Source: Sphingomonadales bacterium (lineage in GTDB: Bacteria > Pseudomonadota > Alphaproteobacteria > CAZZKF01). From it: a stretch of 64,000 nt of DNA. This document shows positions 7,408 to 62,926 of this stretch, in pieces. The first letter of the stretch is position 1, and every line of letters starts with the position of its first letter. The translations under genes and the position numbers were made by a program. The notes under the pieces were generated by a model that worked only from the letters and a program-made list of their open reading frames with translations, was not told the origin of the DNA and ran no database searches. The DNA is taken from positions 5,938 to 69,937 of the forward strand of contig JBHHWG010000004.1 in NCBI GenBank assembly GCA_046756385.1. Reading direction: 5' to 3'.

Positions 7408-8091
7408 TCAAATCGCGCGTCGTTCCGGCCCGTGATACCTGGCCCTGGAGCGAAGAAAATCCGCCGCCAATATTGACGCGCCGCCGTCGTCCAGATAGGC
7501 CGCCAGTTTCCCTGTAACATGGGCGGTGGCGAAACTGGAACCGCCGACGCGACGATCCCCAACCTCCTTCATGCCGCGTGGGCAGGCGCCGTATTCGGCC
7601 TGACTGGTCGCCAGATGGGAAATCTCGTCAGCCGCGCAGCGGGCATCCCCGCTGACGCTGATCACCCCGTCATAGGCGGAGGGATATATCTGTGTTCCCC
7701 GCGCGGGGCTTGCGGCCACCAGTATGATCCCTTCGCCCATTGCCCGCTGGCAAATCTCGCGCACCAAAACGCGGTCTTCGCGCAGGCCGAAGCTCATATT
7801 AATCATTGCGGCGCCTCGTCGGACCAGCCAGTCGAAGCCCTCCGCCACCAGCCGGGGGGTGGCCACTGGTTTGTCGTCAAATATTCGGGCGTTGAGAAGC
7901 CGGGCCCGCGGCGCGTGTCGCCAGATCACCTGGGCAAGCAAGCTGCCGTGCCGGATGGCGTCGGCCGTGTCCGGCCCCACGACCACCTTGCCCTCAGGGC
8001 CGACCTTAAATTGGCGAGCGGCGGCGACACGCGCCCTTTGGCCGCCATCCACCCCGCTGTCGAGCAGGCCAACCAGGACGCCGCTACTCAC
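7408..8091 (-). CDS. Minimal subtilisin-like serine protease (peptidase S8), QhpE-like
   Basis: 227 aa. The catalytic triad is in the canonical S8 order: GLLDSGVD (Asp), HGS (His), GSSFATAHVTG (Ser). Only about 230 aa, which is the size of leader-peptidase-type S8 enzymes. Confidence 0.75.
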   Translation of the reverse strand: MSSGVLVGLLDSGVDGGQRARVAAARQFKVGPEGKVVVGPDTADAIRHGSLLAQVIWRHAPRARLLNARIFDDKPVATPRLVAEGFDWLVRRGAAMINMSFGLREDRVLVREICQRAMGEGIILVAASPARGTQIYPSAYDGVISVSGDARCAADEISHLATSQAEYGACPRGMKEVGDRRVGGSSFATAHVTGKLAAYLDDGGASILAADFLRSRARYHGPERRAI

Positions 8092-9802
8092 CCGCCGCCC
8101 CCAACGCCGCCGGAGCCCGATCAGGCCACGCGATCAGTTTTCCGTCATAAAGTTCCAGCACCTGATCGGTATCGGCAATGAGTGTCTCACGATGACCGAT
8201 GAGGATGCGGGTCCGATCCGCGAACAGCCGGTCGATTTGATCGATCAATTGCGCTTCCGTTTCCCGATCGATGCCGGTCGTCGCTTCATCGAGGACCAGA
8301 ACCAGTGGATCCTGCAAGATCGCCCGCGCCATCGCCAGGCGCTGACGCTGCCCCCCCGAAAGTTGTGCGCCACGCTCGCCGGCCGAAGTGTCATATCCGT
8401 CCGGCAACGTGCGAATAAACCCGTCGATTCGGGCCCGTGCGGCCGCATCGATAATTTCCGCCCGGGTGGCGCCCGGCCGGGCGTAGCGAATATTGTCCGC
8501 AATGGTGCTCCTGAACAGCACAGTGTCCTGAGCAACCACCGCAATCGCGCGGCGCAAGGCCCCAATGTCGAGCGTCTTAAGATCGATGCCGTCGAGCAGG
8601 ATGCGGCCGACATCAGGATCGTAATGGCGGTGCAGCAGATCCGTCATTGTCGACTTCCCGACGCCCGACCGGCCGACGATCGCGACCTTCGCCGCGCCCG
8701 GTATTTCCAGACTGGCGTGATCGAGAACTGCCCGGTCGCGGCCGGGGCGGAAGAATGTTACGCATTCGAAACGAATGGCGCCTTTTGCCTTGTCCGGCAA
8801 GGATGCCGGGTGCGCCGGCGAACATATCACAGGCCGCTGACACGCCAGTTCCATGACCCGGCTCAGACTGACCCGGGCCCGTTGGCTCGCGACATAGAGA
8901 CCGAGGAAAGTCCGTATCGGCCCCGCCGCCCGTCCCATATAGACCGAAAACGCAATCAAAGTGCCGATCGTTATCCGTTCGTCCGCAACCAGGTAGCCGC
9001 CGGTGACAAAAACCAGCGCGATCGCCAGGGTCATCAGCACCCCGGGCGCCGCGCCGGCCAAATAGTTCGTGATTTGCAGGCGTAGCTGATCGGACAAATA
9101 ATCGCTGTGCAACCCGGCGAGACGCCGCGCCTCGCGCTCCCCGGCGCCAACCGCCTGCACGAATTTCATTGCCCCCAGCGTCTCGACCAGAAATCCGGTG
9201 ATGTCGCCGGCCCGCTCCCGCGCGGCTCGGGTCAACCGCTGGATACGCGGACGCATGGTCCGCAAATAAGCGACCTGGAGCGGTAGCAGGACGAAGGCGA
9301 TCAATGTGAGCAGTGGGCTCATCCACAGCATAACCGCCAGACTGCCGACAAGCGCAAGGACGCCATTGACCACGGCAAGCAGCGAATCGGTCGAGAACCG
9401 TTGAATTTCGGCAATATCGCCATCGAGCCGGGTCATGATATCGCCGGTACCGCGCGTGGCGTGGAAATCGGGACTAAGGCTCGTCAATTGACGGTAAACC
9501 TGCTCGCGCATGGCGAATAGAATCCGGCCCGAAAGTGCGGTGTAGAGCCAACGGTTCAGACCGCCGGCCGCCGCCGAAAGCACCGCCGCCGCGACCAGAA
9601 TTCCGCACAGCCACGACACCACGGCCATGTCGCGCTCGATCAAGCCGTCGTCAATCAGCAGCTTGGTAAGATACGGCTGCACCAGCGCCAAACCGGTGGC
9701 GACAATCGACAGCGACAGAACCTGAACCAGGGCGCGACCTTGCGGCCGGACAAAACCGAGCGCCCAGCGGATTGCCGCCTGTTGATCGGCGCCCGGCCTC
9801 AA
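8084..9802 (-). CDS. Fused ABC transporter permease/ATPase (type I exporter), QhpF-like
   Basis: 572 aa. N-terminal 6-TM region. Walker A GRSGVGKST, ABC signature LSGGQRQR, Walker B LVLDEAT. Confidence 0.85.
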   Translation of the reverse strand: MRPGADQQAAIRWALGFVRPQGRALVQVLSLSIVATGLALVQPYLTKLLIDDGLIERDMAVVSWLCGILVAAAVLSAAAGGLNRWLYTALSGRILFAMREQVYRQLTSLSPDFHATRGTGDIMTRLDGDIAEIQRFSTDSLLAVVNGVLALVGSLAVMLWMSPLLTLIAFVLLPLQVAYLRTMRPRIQRLTRAARERAGDITGFLVETLGAMKFVQAVGAGEREARRLAGLHSDYLSDQLRLQITNYLAGAAPGVLMTLAIALVFVTGGYLVADERITIGTLIAFSVYMGRAAGPIRTFLGLYVASQRARVSLSRVMELACQRPVICSPAHPASLPDKAKGAIRFECVTFFRPGRDRAVLDHASLEIPGAAKVAIVGRSGVGKSTMTDLLHRHYDPDVGRILLDGIDLKTLDIGALRRAIAVVAQDTVLFRSTIADNIRYARPGATRAEIIDAAARARIDGFIRTLPDGYDTSAGERGAQLSGGQRQRLAMARAILQDPLVLVLDEATTGIDRETEAQLIDQIDRLFADRTRILIGHRETLIADTDQVLELYDGKLIAWPDRAPAALGAAGE

Positions 9803-9808
9803 GGCGCC

Positions 9809-11287
9809 CTACCCGCCCATGTCCATCGATGCGCCGCTCGGTCCGCGGGGCCCAATATGCTCCGCAAGGAAATCCGGATTTCGCGCCAATATCGCGTCAT
9901 AACATTCAATGGCGGCGTCGACCCAGTCGCGCATCAGATCGCAATAAAGGTATGTCGGACTCTTCGGGTCGTGATAGTTCAGATATGATTCATGATAACA
10001 GCCCCCGGCGCACAGGTTGCGTATCCAGCAGGTCCGGCACGAACTATCATCGAGATTGGCCGCATCTTCCAGAAACCGCGCCAGCTCGTCCTTCCTGATG
10101 CCCTCACGAACTGTCCCAAAGGTCTGGAAATCCGAGCCCGCAAAACGGTGGCACAAGGCCAGACTGCCCTTGGGCTCAACCCCCAGCAGCCCCACACCGG
10201 CGCCGCAGGGCAAGGTCTTGCGATTGCCGTGGTGGAGGTCGGCCAGAAGCTTTTGCAGATTGGAAAATCCGATATTGCGACCGGCAATCGCCGCGTCCCG
10301 GTAGCTTCGGCCCAATGCTTTCATATTTTCGAAAAACTCGGCCAGTTCATCCCCGGTCAATTTGAACCGGCTGGAGCCGTCGGATGTGACCGGCGCGAAG
10401 CCCACCTCGGTAAAACCCAGCTCATGGAACAGATGGTGGTGGATCGCGGCAACGTCGATTGCGCCCGCGGTAACGGTCACCCGCGCGCCGACCGGGCCCG
10501 CCTTGTAACGACCCAGCAGCATGCGCGTTTTTTCGGCTACCAGATCGTAGCTTCCGGCGCCGCGCCTGGTTTTTCGGTGACGATCGTGTACCGCTTTGGG
10601 ACCGTCGATGGACAGTGAAATGGCGAAATTATGCCCGCCCAGGAAATCGACTGATTGCTCGGTCAGCAGGGTCGCATTGGTGGTCAGCGAAAAGTTGGGG
10701 CATTTGCCCAATGCCTGGCAACGGCCCTCGGCATAGGCCACAACGGCTTTAATCAGCGGCATGTTGCTCAACGGCTCGCCGCCAAAGAAAACGACATTTA
10801 CCCGCTCCCGGTCCCCGCTTTCTCCAAGCAGCAAATCAATGCTTCGGGCGGCGGTTTCGAAATCCATGCGGATCGCGCCCGACGGCCGGGTCAGGTCCTC
10901 TTTGTAACAATAGTCGCAGGCGAGATTGCAACCGGTTGTAACATTGATGACCATGGTGCTGAGCGGAAAATTCCTGATCGCGACGGGTTGCCGTCTGGTG
11001 GCCTTCGCCTGTCCTGAGACAAGGATTCCAAGCTCCTTGAACTCACGGATCGTTTGCGCGATTTCAGCCGCCGGGAAGCGGCCGTCAAAATGCCGTTCAA
11101 TATCTGGCGCGTGGATTTCGCCGGTCGACTTGAAAAGGTCGTAGACGGCGACGCCGGCGTCATCAAGCTCGAACATGGCTGTCGTCGGCACATGAAAAAC
11201 GATGCGCCGACCGTTGGTCGCGACATCGTGGACATCCCGCCGAACCATTCGGAGACCGGCCATCGGATCCTCAAACAACGAATACAA
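9809..11287 (-). CDS. Radical SAM / SPASM-domain peptide-modifying enzyme with N-terminal PqqD-like RRE (QhpD-like)
   Basis: CNLACDYC is the CX3CX2C radical-SAM motif. The C-terminal Cys-rich region (CRTCWIRNLCAGGCYHESY) is the SPASM auxiliary cluster. An ~100-aa N-terminal extension (VYDLFKSTGEIHAPDIERHFDGRFPAAEIAQTIREFKELGILV) resembles a PqqD-type RiPP recognition element. Confidence 0.85.
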   Translation of the reverse strand: MYSLFEDPMAGLRMVRRDVHDVATNGRRIVFHVPTTAMFELDDAGVAVYDLFKSTGEIHAPDIERHFDGRFPAAEIAQTIREFKELGILVSGQAKATRRQPVAIRNFPLSTMVINVTTGCNLACDYCYKEDLTRPSGAIRMDFETAARSIDLLLGESGDRERVNVVFFGGEPLSNMPLIKAVVAYAEGRCQALGKCPNFSLTTNATLLTEQSVDFLGGHNFAISLSIDGPKAVHDRHRKTRRGAGSYDLVAEKTRMLLGRYKAGPVGARVTVTAGAIDVAAIHHHLFHELGFTEVGFAPVTSDGSSRFKLTGDELAEFFENMKALGRSYRDAAIAGRNIGFSNLQKLLADLHHGNRKTLPCGAGVGLLGVEPKGSLALCHRFAGSDFQTFGTVREGIRKDELARFLEDAANLDDSSCRTCWIRNLCAGGCYHESYLNYHDPKSPTYLYCDLMRDWVDAAIECYDAILARNPDFLAEHIGPRGPSGASMDMGG

Positions 11288-11332
11288 CCACCGTCAAGTG
11301 TACCAAACACGCTGGCTGCCGGAAAGCGCCCC

Positions 11333-11495
11333 TAGAGCACTTTCAGCTCTTATGGAATCATTTGATGGGCGGGAGCGTCTCGTCCGGCAAGGCGCGGCGC
11401 GCCGCGCGATACGGTGTATCGGGCAAGCGTCGCAACGCCGCCACAACGCAAAATCAGCCCGGTCAAATGCCCCCATAAAAGCTGAAAGTGCTCTA
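11333..11495. repeat. Perfect 16-bp inverted repeat (TAGAGCACTTTCAGCT ... AGCTGAAAGTGCTCTA) flanking a 131-bp spacer, in the divergent rSAM / ABC-importer intergenic region
   Basis: Arms at 11333-11348 and 11480-11495 are exact reverse complements. Partial matches extend to about 21 bp. Confidence 0.6.
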
Positions 11496-11594
11496 TTATC
11501 GACGAAAACAGTGCCGCCAACCGCCGCTGTTGCCTAAGTTACAGGATATGAGCTATCACGGCGTCGATCATTGCTTCAGTCAGAGACCAAGGGC

Positions 11595-12299
11595 ATGAGC
11601 GACCTAGCCGCCGCATTCGCCGCCGCGTTCGATTTGATCGTCTCGCTCGATGCCGAGCTGATGGAGATCGTCGGACGTTCGCTCGCGATCAGCCTTTCGG
11701 CTGTGGCCATCGCCGCCGTGATCGGCCTGCCGCTGGGAGCGGTCCTCGCGGTGATCCGATTTCCGGGCCGGCAGTTCGCAATCATTGTGTTGAACGCCCT
11801 GATGGGCATTCCCCCTGTCGTGGTCGGCGTGGTGATCTACCTGCTATTGTCGCGCTCCGGACCGCTCGGCACATTCGGCCTGCTGTTCTCGCCGTGGGCC
11901 ATGATTATCGCCCAGACCTGCCTGATCACGCCAATCGTCGCCGCACTCAGCCGCCAGATCGTCGATGACCTTTTCGCCGAATACCGGGAATTGCTGAAAT
12001 CGCTTGGCGTCGGGCCCGTCCGGGCGATCCGCACGCTGTTGTGGGACGGCCGGCTGAGCCTGCTGACGGCCGTTCTTGCCGGCTTTGGACGCGCCGCTGG
12101 CGAAGTGGGCGCGGTGCTGATCGTGGGCGGCAATATCGACCATGTCACCCGGGTCATGACCACGGCAATCGCCCTTGAGACCAGCAAGGGACAACTGGCT
12201 CTCGCGGTCGGTCTGGGCATGATCGTCCTGCTGTTATCGATCGGCGTCAACGCGGCGGCCATGCTGACGGGTCAAGCCGCAAAGCGATTGCGGAGCTAA
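11595..12299 (+). CDS. ABC transporter permease, tungstate/molybdate-type (TupB/ModB-like)
   Basis: About 235 aa with 5-6 TM segments. The EAA-like loop (LFAEYRELLKSLGVGPVRAIRTLLWDGRL) and small size are typical of oxoanion ABC permeases. Confidence 0.65.
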   Translation: MSDLAAAFAAAFDLIVSLDAELMEIVGRSLAISLSAVAIAAVIGLPLGAVLAVIRFPGRQFAIIVLNALMGIPPVVVGVVIYLLLSRSGPLGTFGLLFSPWAMIIAQTCLITPIVAALSRQIVDDLFAEYRELLKSLGVGPVRAIRTLLWDGRLSLLTAVLAGFGRAAGEVGAVLIVGGNIDHVTRVMTTAIALETSKGQLALAVGLGMIVLLLSIGVNAAAMLTGQAAKRLRS

Positions 12300-13051
12300 T
12301 GGAAGCAACGGTTACGAATACGGCCCCGCCGGTGGAGAACACCGGCATTCTGCCCCTGGCGCTCGACCGGGTCAGTTTCAGCGCCGGTGGCCAGGCCCTG
12401 ATCGACGAGATTTCGCTCCAGCTTGACGCCGGGCCAATGACCTTGCTGCTGGGGCCCAATGGCGCCGGCAAGAGCTTGCTGCTGCGATTGTGCCATGGCC
12501 TGGTCAACCCCACGTCCGGCTCCATCCAGTGGCGCGGGCCGGGCGGAGCACAATCGAACAGGGCTCAGGCCATGGTTTTTCAGCGGCCGGTGATGCTGCG
12601 TCGTTCCGCGCGCGGCAACCTGATCTATGCCCTGGCGGTGTCCGGCTGGTCGCGACGTGACCGCGGGGAACGGGTTGAGCGCATGCTGGAACGGGCGGGA
12701 CTTGAGGATATTGCCGATCGCTCGGCCTGGGTGCTGTCAGGCGGCGAGCAACAGAGGCTGGCGCTGGCGCGCGCCTGGATAATGGAACCGCAGGTGCTTT
12801 TCCTTGATGAGCCGACGGCCAATCTGGACCCGGCGGCGACCCGGGCGGTGGAGGGCATGATACGGGCCATTCATGAAGCAGGCACCAAGATCGTCATGAC
12901 CACCCACGACCTTGGCCAAGCGCGCCGTCTGGCCGATGAAGTTATGTTCATTTATCAGGGCGCCATCACCGAACGGGCCGCGGCGAACACGTTTTTCGCG
13001 GGACCGACGACCAGCGAGGCAGCCGCATATGTCGAGGGGCGCTTACCATGA
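12299..13051 (+). CDS. ABC transporter ATP-binding protein
   Basis: Walker A GPNGAGKS, signature LSGGEQQRLALARA, Walker B LFLDEPTANLD. ATGG overlap with the permease gene. Confidence 0.8.
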   Translation: MEATVTNTAPPVENTGILPLALDRVSFSAGGQALIDEISLQLDAGPMTLLLGPNGAGKSLLLRLCHGLVNPTSGSIQWRGPGGAQSNRAQAMVFQRPVMLRRSARGNLIYALAVSGWSRRDRGERVERMLERAGLEDIADRSAWVLSGGEQQRLALARAWIMEPQVLFLDEPTANLDPAATRAVEGMIRAIHEAGTKIVMTTHDLGQARRLADEVMFIYQGAITERAAANTFFAGPTTSEAAAYVEGRLP

Positions 13052-13911
13052 TCCGATTGCTTGGAAGGCGGGCGTGGGGCGCCGCATTGACCGTGTCCCT
13101 CCTGACCTTCACCGTCGCAAACGAGACCCACGGCGCCGGTCGCCACATCACTGTGGCTTCGACGACATCGACCGAAAATTCAGGCTTGTTCGACCACGTC
13201 CTGCCCCTATTCGAAACCCGAACCGGTATCTCGGTTCGGGTGATCGCAAAGGGCACCGGTCAGGCTATTGAAATAGCGCGGCGCGGCGATGCTGACGTTT
13301 TGCTCGTCCATCACCGACCGTCGGAAGAGAAATTCGTCGCCCAGGGCTTCGGACTGAAGCGCCGGGAAGTGATGTACAACGATTTCGTAATTGTGGGTCC
13401 CCGCGACGATCCCGCGGACATCGGCGGCGGCCATGATGCGCTAACAGCGTTGCGGCTGATCGCGGCCAGCAGCGCGCCGTTTCTGTCACGCGGTGACGAA
13501 AGCGGCACCCATCGGCGTGAACTGGCGCTGTGGCGCGAAGCCGCGCTTGATGTCGATGGAGCGGGCTTTTCCTGGTATCGGGAGGCCGGCGCGGGCATGG
13601 GCGCCGCCCTCAACATCGCCGCTGAGGCGGAAGCCTACATCCTGGCCGACCGGGGGACCTGGCTGGGTTTCCACAACAAACGAAACCTGGAAATTCTGGT
13701 TGAGGGGGATAAGCGGCTGATCAACATTTACAGCGTTATCCTGGTCAATCCGGTCAGGCATCCCCACGTCAAGGCGAAGGACGGTCGGACATTTATCGAG
13801 TGGCTGCTCTCCCCCCCGGGACAGGCGGCAATCGCCGGCTTTCGCATCGCCGGCGAACAGCCCTTTTTTCCTCTTGGAACGACGGGCGCTTACGGAACCA
13901 GGCCGCGGTAA
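13048..13911 (+). CDS. Periplasmic substrate-binding protein, tungstate-binding TupA-like
   Basis: Signal peptide. The TTSTENSGL motif is characteristic of TupA/WtpA-type oxoanion-binding proteins. Gene coupling to the permease and ATPase. Confidence 0.6.
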   Translation: MIRLLGRRAWGAALTVSLLTFTVANETHGAGRHITVASTTSTENSGLFDHVLPLFETRTGISVRVIAKGTGQAIEIARRGDADVLLVHHRPSEEKFVAQGFGLKRREVMYNDFVIVGPRDDPADIGGGHDALTALRLIAASSAPFLSRGDESGTHRRELALWREAALDVDGAGFSWYREAGAGMGAALNIAAEAEAYILADRGTWLGFHNKRNLEILVEGDKRLINIYSVILVNPVRHPHVKAKDGRTFIEWLLSPPGQAAIAGFRIAGEQPFFPLGTTGAYGTRPR

Positions 13912-15221
13912 CGCAGCCAGTCGCGGGCTACGGCGGCCTCTCCGAAGGTTACCTTGAACCGACGCACCGCGAGTTCGAGCGAACTGCCCTTGTTTTCAAG
14001 AAATTCAAGCAAGGAAACCACAGGGACGCCCGCCACTCGCCATATTCCGCGCGGGTGATCGGGCATCACCAGGACGTCGGCCGCCTTGATGACGTGCCCG
14101 TCGACCACCGGCCGGCGGGCAATTACAATTTCATCCGGCGGCCAATGAACGAACATGGGTTGGCGTTTCAGCGGCTGTCGCCGGCCGCGCCAGAAGGGCC
14201 GCTCCGGCCAGCGTGTCTCGCCGGCATAAAACTCGCGCCCGACATCGATCGCGTGGGCAAAGCGGGTTCCCGCCCGGTAGTGGTAAAAATCAATCGCGAG
14301 ATCGGCACGCTCCGGGTGTCGGATCAGTGTGATGATCACCGGCACCGCCGCCAGCGCGCAACCGAGAGCCTCGAACACGCCGTGGCCGGACAGCGGATCA
14401 AGGGCGATCGCGGCATCACCGACACGGATCACGCCACGCTCAATCGTCGGTTCGCAAAGCACCGGCCCCGCCGCCCGGGCGATGACCGGACCCACCGGCC
14501 GGGCCCCGGTGAGCCAGACCGCGGCTTCGGGAATGCGGGCGATCAGATCGCCGTAAAACCGATTCAATTTCTCTCGGGACGGCATTTGCCCCCGGCCACC
14601 GGCTACAAAAACCTGCAACACTGCCTGGCCTTCGTGGTCGGCGGCAAACCAGGCCCACCCGTCATCAAACGACGCGGTGGCGCTGAACGAGCCCATGTCT
14701 GAGGCAATTTGCCACTCCCGCACCAGCGCGGCCGTCTCTGGGGCCGCCACTCGCCGCCCCTTCGAACGAGGCGCCTGCCGGCCGCGTGCCTCAACAATGA
14801 CACCGGCTTCGAGTTCCATCTTGTCCCACCGCGACGGCCGAAGTGTGACCGTGGCGCCATGTTCGCCGGTTCTAATGGCGCCCACGGCCGCGTCAATCAC
14901 CGTCGCGTCGGACAGGCGGAGGGTTTTGAGGAGCACGGCGTCAAACCGGGCCCGGTTGACGATCCGCTCCCGGTTGACGGTGCTGGTCTCGCAGCGCCAC
15001 GAAGCCCGGCGTTCAATCCGGGGCCCCAATGTTGCGAGCGCCGCACCCAGACCCACCGACTTCAACACCGCTTCGGTACGCGCCGGCAAGCCCTCAATCG
15101 CGAGTACGCGTCGCGGCCTCGTGACCAGCGCAACGCGATGGCCGAGCCGCGATAGCCCCAGCGCGGTCGCGCACCCCGCCGGCCCGCCGCCCAGAACGAC
15201 AATGTCGAAACGCTCCACCAT
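13890..15221 (-). CDS. FAD-dependent monooxygenase (flavin halogenase/hydroxylase fold), QhpG-like
   Basis: N-terminal dinucleotide-binding motif IVVLGGGPAGCATA. GDAAIALDPLSGHGV is the GDAAxxxDPxxGxG motif of group-A flavoprotein monooxygenases. An extra ~100-aa C-terminal domain is present. Confidence 0.8.
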   Translation of the reverse strand: MVERFDIVVLGGGPAGCATALGLSRLGHRVALVTRPRRVLAIEGLPARTEAVLKSVGLGAALATLGPRIERRASWRCETSTVNRERIVNRARFDAVLLKTLRLSDATVIDAAVGAIRTGEHGATVTLRPSRWDKMELEAGVIVEARGRQAPRSKGRRVAAPETAALVREWQIASDMGSFSATASFDDGWAWFAADHEGQAVLQVFVAGGRGQMPSREKLNRFYGDLIARIPEAAVWLTGARPVGPVIARAAGPVLCEPTIERGVIRVGDAAIALDPLSGHGVFEALGCALAAVPVIITLIRHPERADLAIDFYHYRAGTRFAHAIDVGREFYAGETRWPERPFWRGRRQPLKRQPMFVHWPPDEIVIARRPVVDGHVIKAADVLVMPDHPRGIWRVAGVPVVSLLEFLENKGSSLELAVRRFKVTFGEAAVARDWLRYRGLVP

Positions 15222-16438: not shown

Positions 16439-18155
16439 CGCCAGGGGAATGACATGCGGAAACGGTCCTGCCGTTGTCGGCGGGCGCACCAAGGGGGCCG
16501 GCAAATTTTCAGGCGTCGGCGCCAAAGTGTTTTTGCTGGCGGTCGTCCCGGTTCTCACGATTGCCGGCTTGAGCGCCCAGATCGCGCTCAACAATATCAG
16601 TTACACGAAAACAGCGGTCGAAAGCCGCAACGTTGAGGAACGTGAATCCGCCAGACTGAACCGGAACGCCCTGGCTGTACAGGAACAGATGCTTGAGCTG
16701 ACACAGGCGATCAGCAAGGTTGTCAGGCGGCATCAGGAAAACCTCCTTCTACCCAGCCGTGGAGCTTCTGGCGACGTTCTGGCTGGGCGCCGCGTCGCCC
16801 GGCAATGCATCAAGGATTTTAACGATACAGTTCAAAACCTGGCCGCTCTGATCTCCGATTTCGAACCGTTGGACATTGGCGCGGACGGCACCGAACTGGC
16901 CCAGGAGCTGGAGCAACGCATGTCCTATCTGGCCCGCTGGTCCAATAATCTGCCTCGGCTGTTCAAACTGTTCGAGCAGGCGAACGACCGCACGACGACG
17001 GCGCTGCAGTCCGGCGATTCCGCCAGCGCCATGGCCAACTACATTTACGAGGAAACGTCCCACCTTGCCGTCCTGGATAACCGCGTGAACAAGATGTCCG
17101 CGGTATTGGGAGACATGGTCGAAAGTTTATCGACGCTTCAAGGCTTTGAACGGGAGGCCTCGGCGGCCCGAATCCTTGAAGAAATTGCATCATCCAACCT
17201 TCGCATTTTGACCCTGATCGCAACAACGACCTTTATATTGTTGGGCGTGGCCGTCGCCTACTCCCATTTCGGCCTGACAAAACCACTGGTTCGGCTGATT
17301 GCCTCCATGAAGGAACTTGGCAACGGCAATAAGAAGATAGAGATTCCGACCGGGGCCGGGGAGATCGGCGAAATGGCCCATACATTGGCGGTGTTCCGGG
17401 ATAATGCCGTTGCCAAGGAAGCCGCCGAGGAACAGTTGATTCAAGCGCAAAAAATGGAGTCGATCGGCCAGCTCACGGGCGGCGTCGCGCATGATTTCAA
17501 CAACCTGCTGTGTGTCGTCCTGGGCAATCTGGAACTGCTTCAGGAAAAACTGGAACATGACGAGCATCTGCGGAAATTGGTTCAGCGCGCCATCGGCGCC
17601 GCCGACAAGGGCGCGGTGCTGGTGCAGCGATTACTGGCATTCTCGCGCAAGCAAACCCTGATGCCCAAGGAAACGGACATTGGCGACATGGTCGAGGGCA
17701 TGTCCGGTTTACTGCGCCGGACGCTCGGCGAATGGGTCGAGATCAGGACTGAAACGGAAGACGAACCGTGCATCGCGCGGATCGATTCGGCGCAACTGGA
17801 AAATGTTCTGCTGAATCTTGCGCTGAACGCCCGCGACGCCATGTCCAGCAGGGGGACGTTGACGATTGCGGCCAGGAATACATACCTGGACGACACCCGT
17901 CTGACCGATCACGAGGGCCTGGAACCGGGGCATTTCGTATTGGTTTCAGCAACCGATACTGGCGAAGGCATACCGGCGGAACATCTTGAGAGGGTCTTCG
18001 AGCCGTTCTTCACCACCAAGGAAGTGGGCAAGGGAAGCGGCCTCGGCCTGTCGATGATTTATGGTTTCGTCAAGCAGTCAGGCGGCCATATCGAAATCGA
18101 AAGCCACGTCGGGACTGGCACTTCAATCCGAATTTATCTGCCGCGAGTTCTTTAA
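16428..18155 (+). CDS. Sensor histidine kinase (periplasmic sensor, HAMP, HisKA, HATPase_c)
   Basis: Two TM segments flank a ~230-aa periplasmic region. H-box [21 protein letters not shown]1 and G2 boxes near the C-terminus ([11 protein letters not shown]). No receiver domain. Confidence 0.85.
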
Positions 18156-27445: not shown

Positions 27446-27729
27446 CCACCCTCTCCCACACCAACAGAATCGCTAAACTGACAAGACCGCCGAAATATCC
27501 CGGACGGAGCCCTTCCGCCCGGTCCTTAATCCCTACGGTTATAACGCCATGTCATGGCATTGTCAGAAACCCTTACAATCTTTCCGGGGAACGGCTCACT
27601 GGCGTTGGCAGGTTACTGGCGGAATGGCAAGAACATATTGTAAGTTCGCACAAATTTTGAGAGGCTGGCCCGGCCCGCAAGCGGGGTGGAGCGTCTTGAA
27701 ATCAGAAAAGCAGTGTTCGGAAAACCGCC

Positions 27730-28128
27730 ATGGAGTTCTTTGCATCAACCGAGACCGGCGACCATGACGTAAGCGCCCATGCGCGCAAAATTGGTGAGGA
27801 TGTGCTGGTCGCGATCTGGGGCGGCGACAAGCCTCATATCGGCGCCGTGGCGGCTGCCCAACCGCGCCCCAGTCTTGACGACCGAACCAGAACCAGCGCC
27901 TCAACATCCGTGATCTGCTTTGTCGGCCACAAAGAAGACGATCTGGCAAAGCATGCGGCGCAGACGCTCGCGTCGGCGTTGAAGGTGCGGGTCGTTGTCA
28001 CCGCCGGCATCCATTGGGACAACATCACGCCGGACGGAATCAAATCGGTTCGCTGCAACTGCAAGTCCGTAATCGCAAAGGTTGCCGATCTCCTGTCTGG
28101 CGCCCCGGAACGTCCGGAAACGGCCTGA
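27730..28128 (+). CDS. Hypothetical protein (132 aa)
   Basis: Intact ORF with good codon usage between the RdhA-like and MCP genes. No recognised motif. Confidence 0.3.
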
Positions 28129-29787: not shown

Positions 29788-31119
29788 GTGGCAAAAACCG
29801 AAATCGACATCGCCGGGCGGCTGGCTTTCCTCGGCATCGATGAAACGATCTTCACTGTGCTCGGCACGCTTTGGCTCCATATAGAGCCCGAAATTGACGA
29901 TATTTGCGGGCGGTATCTGGCTCACATGATGTCAGTTCCGCATCTGCGTGAGAAATGGCGGAATGTCGATTTCGACAAGCTCAAACACCGCCTGCCTGGA
30001 CAGTGGCGCGAGATATTCACCAAGGGAATTACTGAGAATCTCGTCCAGCGCGTTGCCGAACGCGGCTTCAATTTCCACCGCGATGGCTTCGAACCGCGCT
30101 GGTTTCTGGGCAGCTACGCTGTCGGGTTCGACGGCTTTGAAAAAATCGCCATTCGGGTCTACCGGGATCACCCCAAAGAGTTGACCGCCGCGATTTCAGC
30201 GCTTGGCAAAATCGAGATCTTGATCACCGATATCATGGTATCTGCCTATTACGAAGCCTCGCGGATAGCTGCTCAGGCGGAACTCGATCGCCATGCCGAG
30301 GTTTTCGAAACCGGGGTCATGGCAACCGTCCAGACGGTCGCTGCCGCAACCGAACAAGTTCGCCAGGTCACTCGGGAAATGTTTGAAGCCGCCAATCAAA
30401 CCAACGCACTGAGCAGTGCGGTAACCCAGGCGTCCAACAAGGCGTCGGAAAATGTCCATGGCGTCGCCACTGCTTCGGAGGAAATGGTCGCGTCGGTAGC
30501 GGAGGTCAACAACCAGCTATCCCGCGCGGCCAAAGCGACCAATGCCGCCGCGAACCAGGCCAGCGGCTCCACCGAATCGACAGAGAGCCTGATTGAGGCA
30601 TCGGAGCGTATCGGAAATGTTTCGGAACTTATCTCGGATATTGCCTCCCAAACCAATCTGTTGGCGCTTAATGCGACGATCGAGGCAGCCCGGGCTGGCG
30701 ACGCGGGCCGGGGGTTTGCGGTGGTGGCGTCCGAGGTCAAATCCCTGGCCGGTCAGACGGCAAAGGCCACAAGCGACATTTCGGCCCAGATCGATGCCAT
30801 ACAAGTTGCGACCCGGCAGGTCGTGGCCGCCAACAGCAAGATCGAGGGATCGATCGACAACATTAAAACGGTCGCCGGTTCGATCTACAGTTCAGTGCAG
30901 CAGCAGGGCGCCGCGGCGGATGAAATCAGCCGCAACATTCAGATGGCGGCCATGGGCACTCAAGAGGTTTCCGAAGGAACAGGAGAGGTCGACAACGCGT
31001 CCAGGCGCACGAGCAACGCCGCCCAGGCGGTGTTGCAAGCCACGGAAGATATCACTGGCAAAGTCGAAACTCTCAACAGCCAGGTCGGGGACTTCATCAA
31101 AGCGGTTCGAAGCGAATGA
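29788..31119 (+). CDS. Globin-coupled sensor methyl-accepting chemotaxis protein, copy 2 (tandem paralog)
   Basis: Collinear 443-aa paralog of copy 1 with the same domain order: protoglobin sensor then the MCP signalling domain [35 protein letters not shown]. Confidence 0.85.
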
Positions 31120-32402: not shown

Positions 32403-32720
32403 GCTTCACTCTTTCGGGCTTTACGATCGCGGGCGCCAGACAAGGAGGGCACCGAAAGCGGCAACCGTCCCCAAGCCGACCAACCGCTTAAACTATCGAA
32501 TCCTGCTTGGCGAATCTGACGCCAATATTTGACTCCATATGTACCATACGGTACGGTACAGTCTAACATGCAACAGAGCTGGTGTACAGAACCATGACCT
32601 AAAGGTTCCGAACCGCCGGAATTCTGGGATTGATCAGCTAGTGGTCCGGGCGGATATCCGGGAACCAAATGTCTTTGTCGGACCACTAGCCCGACAAAGA
32701 GATGAATGGGAGCGCGCCAC

Positions 32721-37335: not shown

Positions 37336-37353
37336 GGCCATCGGACCAAACAA

Positions 37354-37390
37354 AAACAGCCGGGTGGACTCTTCCTCCCGGCTGTTTTTT
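37354..37390. terminator. Rho-independent terminator (bidirectional)
   Basis: CAGCCGGG-tggactcttcct-CCCGGCTG followed by TTTTTTT. Directly after the receptor stop and before the convergent TPR-methyltransferase gene. Confidence 0.65.
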
Positions 37391-41082: not shown

Positions 41083-41159
41083 GCGCCCGTAGCTCAGCTG
41101 GATAGAGCATCAGACTTCGAATCTGAGGGTCGGGAGTTCGAATCTCTCCGGGCGCGCCA
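41083..41159 (+). tRNA. tRNA-Arg (anticodon TCG)
   Basis: Cloverleaf with a 7-bp acceptor stem GCGCCCG/CGGGCGC and D-arm GCTCAGCTGGATAGAGC. Anticodon loop cTTCGaa gives anticodon TCG. T-arm GGGAGTTCGAATCTCTC. CCA is encoded. Confidence 0.85.
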
Positions 41160-50399: not shown

Positions 50400-50475
50400 G
50401 CCATTTGCCGCATTTTCCGCAACATATTGCAATTTTTCGCGATACGCAATATGTTGCACGCGGCGTTTCGGCGTT
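50400..50475. promoter_or_regulatory. Operator-like inverted repeat in the divergent ligase / TonB-receptor intergenic region
   Basis: CGCAACATATTGCAA ... CGCAATATGTTGCAC form an imperfect ~13-bp inverted repeat. Additional ATTTTCCGCA direct repeats lie in a GC-poor segment. Confidence 0.3.
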
Positions 50476-59658: not shown

Positions 59659-59942
59659 TACATCATGACATTAGCCATCTGGCCGCTCATGTCGCTATGC
59701 GCACCAGCGCTCGGCAAGGGCTCAGTCGGGCGGAGGCCGCGGCTTTGCAGCGCAACCTGGTCGACCTTGCGCTACGGGTTCAACTGTTGGAGGCACATGG
59801 CGCACCGGCCGAGCCGTGGAGCGAATTCGTCGCCTTCCCGCCGCCCCAGGCGCCGATGTTGGACCTCGCGCCGACCGGCCGGATCGAGCGGTTCAAGCTG
59901 CTTTTAAAGCGCCTCGGCTCCTCGTTTCAAACCGCATCATAG
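59655..59942 (+). CDS. Hypothetical phage protein
   Basis: Coupled small ORF. Confidence 0.35.
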   Translation: MIHHDISHLAAHVAMRTSARQGLSRAEAAALQRNLVDLALRVQLLEAHGAPAEPWSEFVAFPPPQAPMLDLAPTGRIERFKLLLKRLGSSFQTAS

Positions 59943-62534: not shown

Positions 62535-62926
62535 GCGTGTCCTACGAGGATCTGCCCGAGCTGGCCCGCGACATGGCCGATCGCCTGGGCCTGGAGGCGA
62601 CGCTGGCGCTTGTTCTTGTGTTTGGAGGCACCTATCTCAGGGTGCCCAAGCGCGCCAATCCCGACGGCGCGATCGCGGCCGCCGTCGGGATCGATGCGGC
62701 TTCAAGACTGAGCCATCATTTTGGCGGCGAGCGTCTGGAAATGCCGCGTGCCGCTGCCGCTCTTACCCGGCACGAGCGCGCCTCGATTTTGGCTCAGGTG
62801 TCTGCCGGCGCGATCACTGTGGGCGGCGCGGCGCGGCAATTGAACTTGACAACCCGCTGGGTTCGCGAGCTTGTTAACAGGCCCCGCCGCGACGATCGCC
62901 AGCAAGACATGTTCGAAAGCCCATAG
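62531..62926 (+). CDS. Mor-family transcriptional activator (middle operon regulator)
   Basis: About 131 aa. LALVLVFGGTYLRVPK and a C-terminal HTH (GAITVGGAARQLNLTTRWVRELV) are typical of Mor/C-family late activators. Confidence 0.6.
   Translation: MSVSYEDLPELARDMADRLGLEATLALVLVFGGTYLRVPKRANPDGAIAAAVGIDAASRLSHHFGGERLEMPRAAAALTRHERASILAQVSAGAITVGGAARQLNLTTRWVRELVNRPRRDDRQQDMFESP

Follow-up and report, generated by a model that had tools for sequence, protein, structure and literature searches.

A perfect inverted repeat between qhpD and a tupB-like importer operon very probably marks the ends of an internally deleted MITE from an alphaproteobacterial family with a conserved internal hairpin

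The window analyzed here (the whole 64-kb stretch of DNA under study) carries a split set of qhp maturation genes (7408–15221). On the minus strand lie qhpE (7408–8091), an MsbA-like exporter gene (8084–9802) and qhpD (9809–11263), a radical-SAM gene whose NCBIfam name is QhpD, quinohemoprotein amine dehydrogenase maturase. A TupBCA-like importer on the plus strand (11595–13911), which begins with the gene for the TupB-like permease (11595–12299) of a TupABC-like (tungstate-type) ABC importer, parts these three genes from qhpG (13890–15221, minus strand), and its last gene shares 22 bp with the end of qhpG. Genes for the structural subunits were not located. The best QhpD homolog in the protein database is 64% identical, and the locus is present only in two Logan assemblies, which agree in intergenic length and in core sequence.

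Between the two divergent genes—the radical-SAM gene on the minus strand and the importer permease gene on the plus strand, as a first sequence-only reading had placed it—lies a perfect inverted repeat: TAGAGCACTTTCAGCT at 11333–11348 and its exact reverse complement at 11480–11495, with the 131-bp spacer which that reading had described. The 163-bp unit so bounded ends 69 bp from the start codon of qhpD and 99 bp from that of the permease gene. It holds the only perfect 16-nt inverted repeat in the window with a spacer of 300 nt or less, and first-order Markov simulations, which yield on average 0.075 such pairs of 16-mers per window, bear out the earlier judgment that chance is an unlikely source. 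Inward, the repeat extends to 33 nt per arm (11333–11365 and 11463–11495), with 29 positions paired and 4 mismatched (88% complementarity). The fold expected of such a repeat was recovered as a single long hairpin, more stable than shuffled sequence on both strands (z = −6.4 on the plus strand, −7.5 on the minus strand). The spacer is not GC-rich as had been thought, since its GC content is 61.8% vs. 60.3% for the window; it is instead the arms, at 39%, that are AT-rich. Other perfect inverted repeats in the window, of 12–13 nt with short spacers (7910–8035, 17316–17417, 29799–29974, 32637–32690, 37352–37389, 50419–50457, and 62658–62691), may be terminators or chance occurrences.

The sequence-only reading had offered three accounts of this arrangement—a pair of operator sites, a large regulatory hairpin, or the termini of a MITE-like insertion—and had proposed a search for further copies, which gave a divided answer. 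For the 16-mer the answer was negative: a search of the window allowing 3 mismatches returned 3 matches (0.18 expected), two of which are the arms themselves, and the exact terminal 21-mer was without a true match among 185,579 species, each represented by one genome (a single chance match fell in an Aquificales MAG). For the family it was positive, by way of a conserved interior and a degenerate end motif. BLAST of the unit against plasmids gave matches only in its central ~60–70 nt, and plasmids of Thalassospira marina, Agrobacterium sp. MA01, and Nitratireductor thuwali matched the interior at 11386–11442. In all three, the matching stretch is the center of a long inverted repeat that differs in sequence from that of the window and starts with TA. 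A degenerate pattern for this core (GGCWAGGC-N13-CGATRC-N3-GYATCG-N3-AAG) matched at least 120 metagenome contigs. Many of the matches listed stand at contig ends, as expected for repeats that break assemblies. At least 14 near-identical copies come from a single metagenome, on contigs of 124–689 kb, and eight of these, aligned with their flanks, have sharp boundaries, from CTAGAGCG… to …CGCTCTAG, with unrelated DNA beyond. The pattern also matched two contigs classed as viral, one with a full-length type 2 copy (IMGVR_UViG_3300033407_000880) and one with a full-length type 1 copy (IMGVR_UViG_2891637928_000001; types are defined below).

Relatives in the family share TA-GAGC at their termini, the box GGAAYCATTTGA farther in, and a hairpin of ~57 nt at the center. 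The outermost repeats are of two types that share one core. Type 1 ends, which include those of the window copy, read TA-GAGC, ~17 variable bases, then GGAAYCATTTGA; type 2 ends, found in the Nitratireductor and Agrobacterium copies, read TA-CCAAVGG…TGACCCAT. Across 45 independent type 1 contexts the modal length is 266 bp, and TA stands at both the start and the end of the element in 41. Immediately before the first TA stands C in 34 of these contexts or T in 8, and after the last TA stands G in 34 or A in 8, such that the flanks are mostly CTAG (C-TA…TA-G, 34/45) and less often TTAA (T-TA…TA-A, 8/45). Flank pairs that are not complementary, such as the C…T of the window copy, indicate that these flanking bases are target sequence lying outside the repeat. 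Besides the window copy, short forms of 158–173 bp occur. Some genomes hold two copies within a few kb, and a covariance model (described below) found elements outside the strict DNA pattern, i.e., L022 4242–4445, L023 452–661, L027 3508–3712, and L126 534–635.

Read against this family, the parts of the window element (11333–11495, plus strand, 163 bp including the TA at each end, delimited by the outermost inverted repeat and by family comparison) can be assigned. The TA at 11333–11334 (context C-TA) and that at 11494–11495 (context TA-T), placed by the TA ends of the family, are a putative target-site duplication. The left terminal inverted repeat, or "GATGG end" (11333–11365, plus strand), consists of TA-GAGC, a variable stretch and the GGAATCATTTGA box, and contains a GAATC (11355–11359), an instance of the CcrM methylation motif GANTC, that is found in the left repeat only; the right repeat, or "GACCGG end" (11463–11495), reads on the minus strand. 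Inside these ends are a left inner arm, GCGGGAGCGTCTCGTCC (11369–11385), the conserved core hairpin, GGCAAGGC…GCAACGCCGCC (11386–11442), whose sense strand is the plus strand of the window, and a right inner arm, ACAACGCAAAATCAGCCC (11443–11460), with which the left inner arm pairs poorly. Three ORFs overlap the unit, none with a Pfam match, and a frame apparently common to the window and Thalassospira copies is broken in the homologs, by a stop in Agrobacterium and a frameshift in Nitratireductor (as judged by eye). On these two grounds—the lack of a Pfam match and reading frames that, by eye, are unconserved between homologs—a coding role for the core was rejected.

Comparison with full-length elements accounts for the uneven pairing of the window hairpin. 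An element of ~266 bp consists of two inverted end modules joined by a CCACCGAAGGCCGG linker, each made of a terminal repeat followed by a stem-loop of ~100 nt with the conserved ~57-nt core; of the two ends of these long elements, one reads …CATTTGATGG, the other …CATTTGACCGG. With 96 distinct cores as its basis, a covariance model always finds two abutting matches in long elements, a plus-strand match and then a minus-strand match, and from this order each core reads inward from its own end. In the window it finds one, at 11363–11465, which scores 80.8 bits on the plus strand and 10 bits on the minus strand at the same place; the next best match anywhere in the window scores 14.7 bits, and the window thus holds a single copy by both the 16-mer search and the model. 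Weak matches of 12.7–14.7 bits (rough E 0.01–0.06) at 27644–27752 (in a ~640-bp gap between ORFs), 30977–31046, and 59784–59837 are probably generic GC-rich hairpins. Aligned with relatives of 259–268 bp, the window copy has an internal gap of ~104 bp, with the junction at 11442/11443 (by alignment and comparison with three relatives, L014, L009, and L092). The first hairpin has lost its 3′ arm, and the linker and the second core are gone, while both ends and one core are kept. The right inner arm of the window copy, ACAACGCAAAATCAGCCC, matches ACGACGCAAAATCATCCC, which in long relatives forms the outer arm of hairpin two. The inner stem is thus poorly paired because the deletion joined arms of different hairpins, and the perfect 16-nt arms, on the strength of this alignment, are the intact ends of an internally deleted element.

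The family has terminal inverted repeats, a small size without a transposase gene, and dispersed copies in unrelated flanks, all of them features of a MITE. The last of the three accounts is therefore the one borne out—the same ends and hairpin recur in many unrelated contexts with sharp boundaries and TA flanks, and a family member is present or absent at an orthologous site (below). We conclude that the window repeat very probably represents the ends of an internally deleted, non-autonomous MITE inserted at a TA between qhpD and the tupB-like operon. The operator account is not supported, as the same motifs stand beside unrelated genes and the sequence is not tied to the qhp or importer genes, and neither is a hairpin specific to this locus, as the same hairpin occurs beside unrelated genes in many genomes. 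A dedicated regulatory device, whether arms that serve as operator half-sites for a qhp- or tup-like regulator or a 163-nt hairpin that serves as a 5′-UTR switch, would suit the position of the unit between divergent start codons (69 and 99 bp away) and its very stable fold. We nonetheless consider it highly improbable, given the recurrence of end motif and core beside unrelated genes across many genomes, and given an inner stem that in the window copy is as poorly paired as a deletion product should be. A consensus scan found no sigma-70-like promoter and no promoter- or terminator-like site, and Rfam gave no match to the unit at gathering score, only chance-level matches to miRNA hairpins and Guanidine-III (E ≥ 0.03) under permissive settings, and no match overlapping the elements in 20 related loci.

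The family also offers evidence of mobility. On a Nitratireductor plasmid, one copy occupies the tiny spacer between a permease gene and ugpC; at the orthologous ugpC/permease junction in plasmids of Shinella and Roseibium, ~176 bp are absent, with breakpoints at TA. Judged from these alignments, the junction is a case of presence and absence of a family member at an orthologous site. The empty site is compatible with duplication of TA, in a comparison made between genera and with a TA that could equally be the outermost bases of the repeat. For the window locus, which has no close relative in the protein database, we infer insertion from the family: a non-autonomous DNA transposon would have inserted at a TA in the region of ~166 bp between qhpD and the tupB-like importer operon, and the predicted pre-insertion site is …GAAAGCGCCCC-TA-TTATCGACG…, with a single TA. 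The ~104 bp missing from this copy would then have been lost.

The IS630/Tc1-mariner family is known to prefer CTAG. Its elements insert at TA and duplicate it (PMC2170065), and the insertion at TA and CTAG preference observed here are those expected of an element mobilized by this family. Movement would presumably have occurred in trans, by an IS630/Tc1-mariner-type DDE transposase that duplicates the TA. An autonomous partner was sought in three ways: a search of 805 kb of related loci for TAGAG…CTCTA pairs 0.6–3 kb apart revealed no such element, no recurrent protein gene adjoined copies across loci (only ABC-type paralogs did), and BLAST of the plasmid collection with long forms and with one end found none.

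Copies of the family favor particular sites. None lies inside an ORF. Apart from the window copy, 17 contexts could be classified with crude GC3-filtered ORFs: genes on either side are convergent in 7, tandem in 9 and divergent in 1, such that the divergent-promoter position of the window copy is unusual. The terminal TAG doubles as a stop codon at 19 of 80 element ends, counting open frames of at least 80 codons with high GC3; for all TAG trinucleotides in these loci the figure is 6.7%. An element that targets TA and starts with G restores TAG on insertion, which renders insertions into stop codons harmless.

The core hairpin shows the marks of selection on its fold. In a structure of 17 pairs defined by hand, standard pairs fill 96.3% of cells, vs. 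82% after shuffling and 22–42% with partners slid. Cells changed on both sides number 186 (52 expected) and the covariation score is 0.369 (vs. 0.106, and reached by none of 500 shuffles), though the core sequences are related and neither these counts nor the wobble counts below represent independent events. All six pairs of the stem at columns 32–37/66–71 covary, as do both pairs at 42–43/61–62, and these positions are the unconstrained Ns of the search pattern. The unpaired AGGC, AAG, and AAC are invariant; as AGGC and AAG were fixed by the pattern, only the invariant AAC and a well-conserved G·G mismatch lie outside it. The loop reads GGN. Pairs of the G·T kind outnumber A·C pairs by 99 to 9, with the bias present at every variable pair, and this excess indicates that folding is selected on the strand written GGCWAGGC…, i.e., the plus strand of the window.

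These properties invite a different account of the whole family, in which the elements are hairpin-recognized (REPIN/RAYT-like or otherwise transposed as single-stranded DNA), or are dispersed genes for a structured small RNA, and the terminal repeat is secondary. Conservation is stronger in the interior hairpin than in the ends, two end types share this hairpin, its stems covary around invariant unpaired bases, and the ratio of G·T to A·C (99 vs. 9) implies strand-specific selection on a single strand. We regard this account as improbable, however, as the core consensus contains neither REP tag (GTAG or CGTC), copies adjoin no gene for a RAYT-like or otherwise recurrent protein, and the elements end in long terminal repeats within TA flanks that favor CTAG. 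The substrates of IS200/IS605 and RAYT transposition are unlike such elements. An integron attC-like reading was set aside in view of the known features of attC sites.

Within the preferred reading of the family as MITEs, the core hairpin may act as a single-stranded fold on transcripts, or DNA, that enter from the flanks. Most plausibly it would be an RNA stem-loop at 3′ ends that makes insertions at gene ends tolerable. A transcript stem-loop fits best with a sense strand that reads inward from either end, with the wobble bias, and with the tendency of elements to sit at gene 3′ ends; recognition of the core as single-stranded DNA is the alternative. Our tentative proposal, which we consider possible but doubtful, is that the core is a functional structured RNA (possibly single-stranded DNA) module that rides on a transposon as a mobile, bidirectional 3′-end stem-loop. 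Under this proposal full-length elements would present one sense core to transcripts from either side, and would land preferentially on stop codons and regenerate TAG; candidate roles are those of mRNA stabilizer, terminator, or protein-binding site. If true, it would represent an undescribed class of structured RNA across several orders of Alphaproteobacteria.

The window copy itself is probably an inactive relic that splits the divergent promoter region only incidentally, and a relic is the most likely reading because flanking transcription runs outward from it. Alternatively, it may be a co-opted MITE: were tup-like transcription to start left of the element or inside it, the 5′ UTR would contain the sense core and the long hairpin, which would then affect expression or the stability of the mRNA. 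The selected core strand is the plus strand of the window and thus runs in the direction of the importer operon, and there is precedent in other bacteria for MITE hairpins that act on adjacent transcripts (PMC10969869; PMC2229807). We nevertheless consider co-option unlikely, as the consensus scan found no sigma-70-like promoter, the family usually lies at gene 3′ ends rather than in 5′ regions, and the window copy is deleted, with the base of its core stem mispaired. If the importer promoter does lie left of the element, a large hairpin could form in the importer 5′ UTR.

The kind of feature is ordinary: it is a bacterial MITE like RUP, Correia, and ERIC (PMC2229807; PMC10969869), here in a degraded copy. 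RUP of Streptococcus pneumoniae and Correia/NEMIS of Neisseria are MITEs derived from IS630/Tc1-mariner elements (PMC2229807, Table 1), and they share with the present family a length of 100–300 bp, terminal inverted repeats, TA at both termini, a hairpin formed by the whole element, an intergenic location, and the lack of any gene for a transposase. Unlike them, the present family has inverted end modules of ~110–130 nt, each with a conserved, covarying stem-loop, and two end types around one core. Its hosts are Alphaproteobacteria, and the distinction is drawn from descriptions.

The closest alphaproteobacterial description, as far as the account in PMC2229807 goes, is that of the CcrM-associated intergenic repeats (CIR) of Caulobacter and Brucella (Chen and Shapiro, 2003, as cited there). 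On that account CIR elements resemble the present ones in being alphaproteobacterial and strictly intergenic, with TA termini, two stem-loop arms and a linker, and GANTC in one half only. The same source gives them a length of ~110 bp, no terminal inverted repeats, and a GANTC in the terminal loop (PMC2229807), whereas the elements described here, compared by description only, are ~266 bp long (163 bp in the window) with long terminal repeats, one of which holds the GANTC.

The ERIC/IRU repeats of enterobacteria are likewise MITE-like, with a hairpin conserved between species, and are usually co-transcribed with neighboring genes. We know of no sequence relation between them and the window family. 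ERIC is a single hairpin of 127 bp with a 7-bp terminal inverted repeat (PMC2229807, Table 1) and has different hosts. REP/REPIN sequences are also GC-rich hairpins dispersed outside genes; they frequently stand at gene 3′ ends and occur as inverted hairpin doublets, but REPs are 20–40 nt long with a GTAG or CGTC tag (PMC3733652), and they are without long terminal repeats or TA flanks. Membership in REP/RAYT was rejected on the ground that neither tag stands at the base of the core stem, where the equivalent position reads CTAG or CAAG. MITEPye1 of Paracoccus, which derives from IS1182, was rejected as a relative. A search by keyword and sequence string found no published description of the family, and with an ISfinder entry or other paper possible, it is apparently undescribed, widespread in Alphaproteobacteria, and unusual in how well its internal hairpin is conserved.

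For the locus, the result is a caution: a palindrome between qhp genes and a tungstate-type importer very probably represents the debris of a mobile element rather than a designed regulatory site, even if the element may still perturb both neighboring promoters. For the family, the elements break metagenome assemblies, yield spurious calls of small ORFs, and target stop codons, and their covarying, strand-biased hairpin makes a tractable case for why some MITE interiors stay conserved.

Several minor observations attach to these elements. In 17 of 32 type 1 elements, just one of the two terminal repeats carries GANTC, at position 23, and the other repeat reads GAACC or similar. In IS10 and IS50, Dam sites link transposition to replication through hemimethylation; by analogy, a CcrM site at one end may couple movement of the element to replication. 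One annotated protein, the 52-aa "hypothetical protein" WP_338531987.1, lies wholly inside a type 2 copy (L007 1956–2114, Nitratireductor thuwali p1536_1) with its start supplied by the terminal repeat (AAGGAG…ATG), and the gene call is probably spurious. The window has a tRNA gene at 41083–41156 (plus strand; Rfam RF00005, 70.4 bits). On marine metagenome contigs, and outside the elements, two sub-threshold Rfam matches to Brucella sRNA families were seen, one to BASRCI27 (L117 588–748, 43 bits vs. a gathering score of 59.8) and a partial one to BASRCI408 (L090 3020–3085), and these may represent another dispersed repeat.
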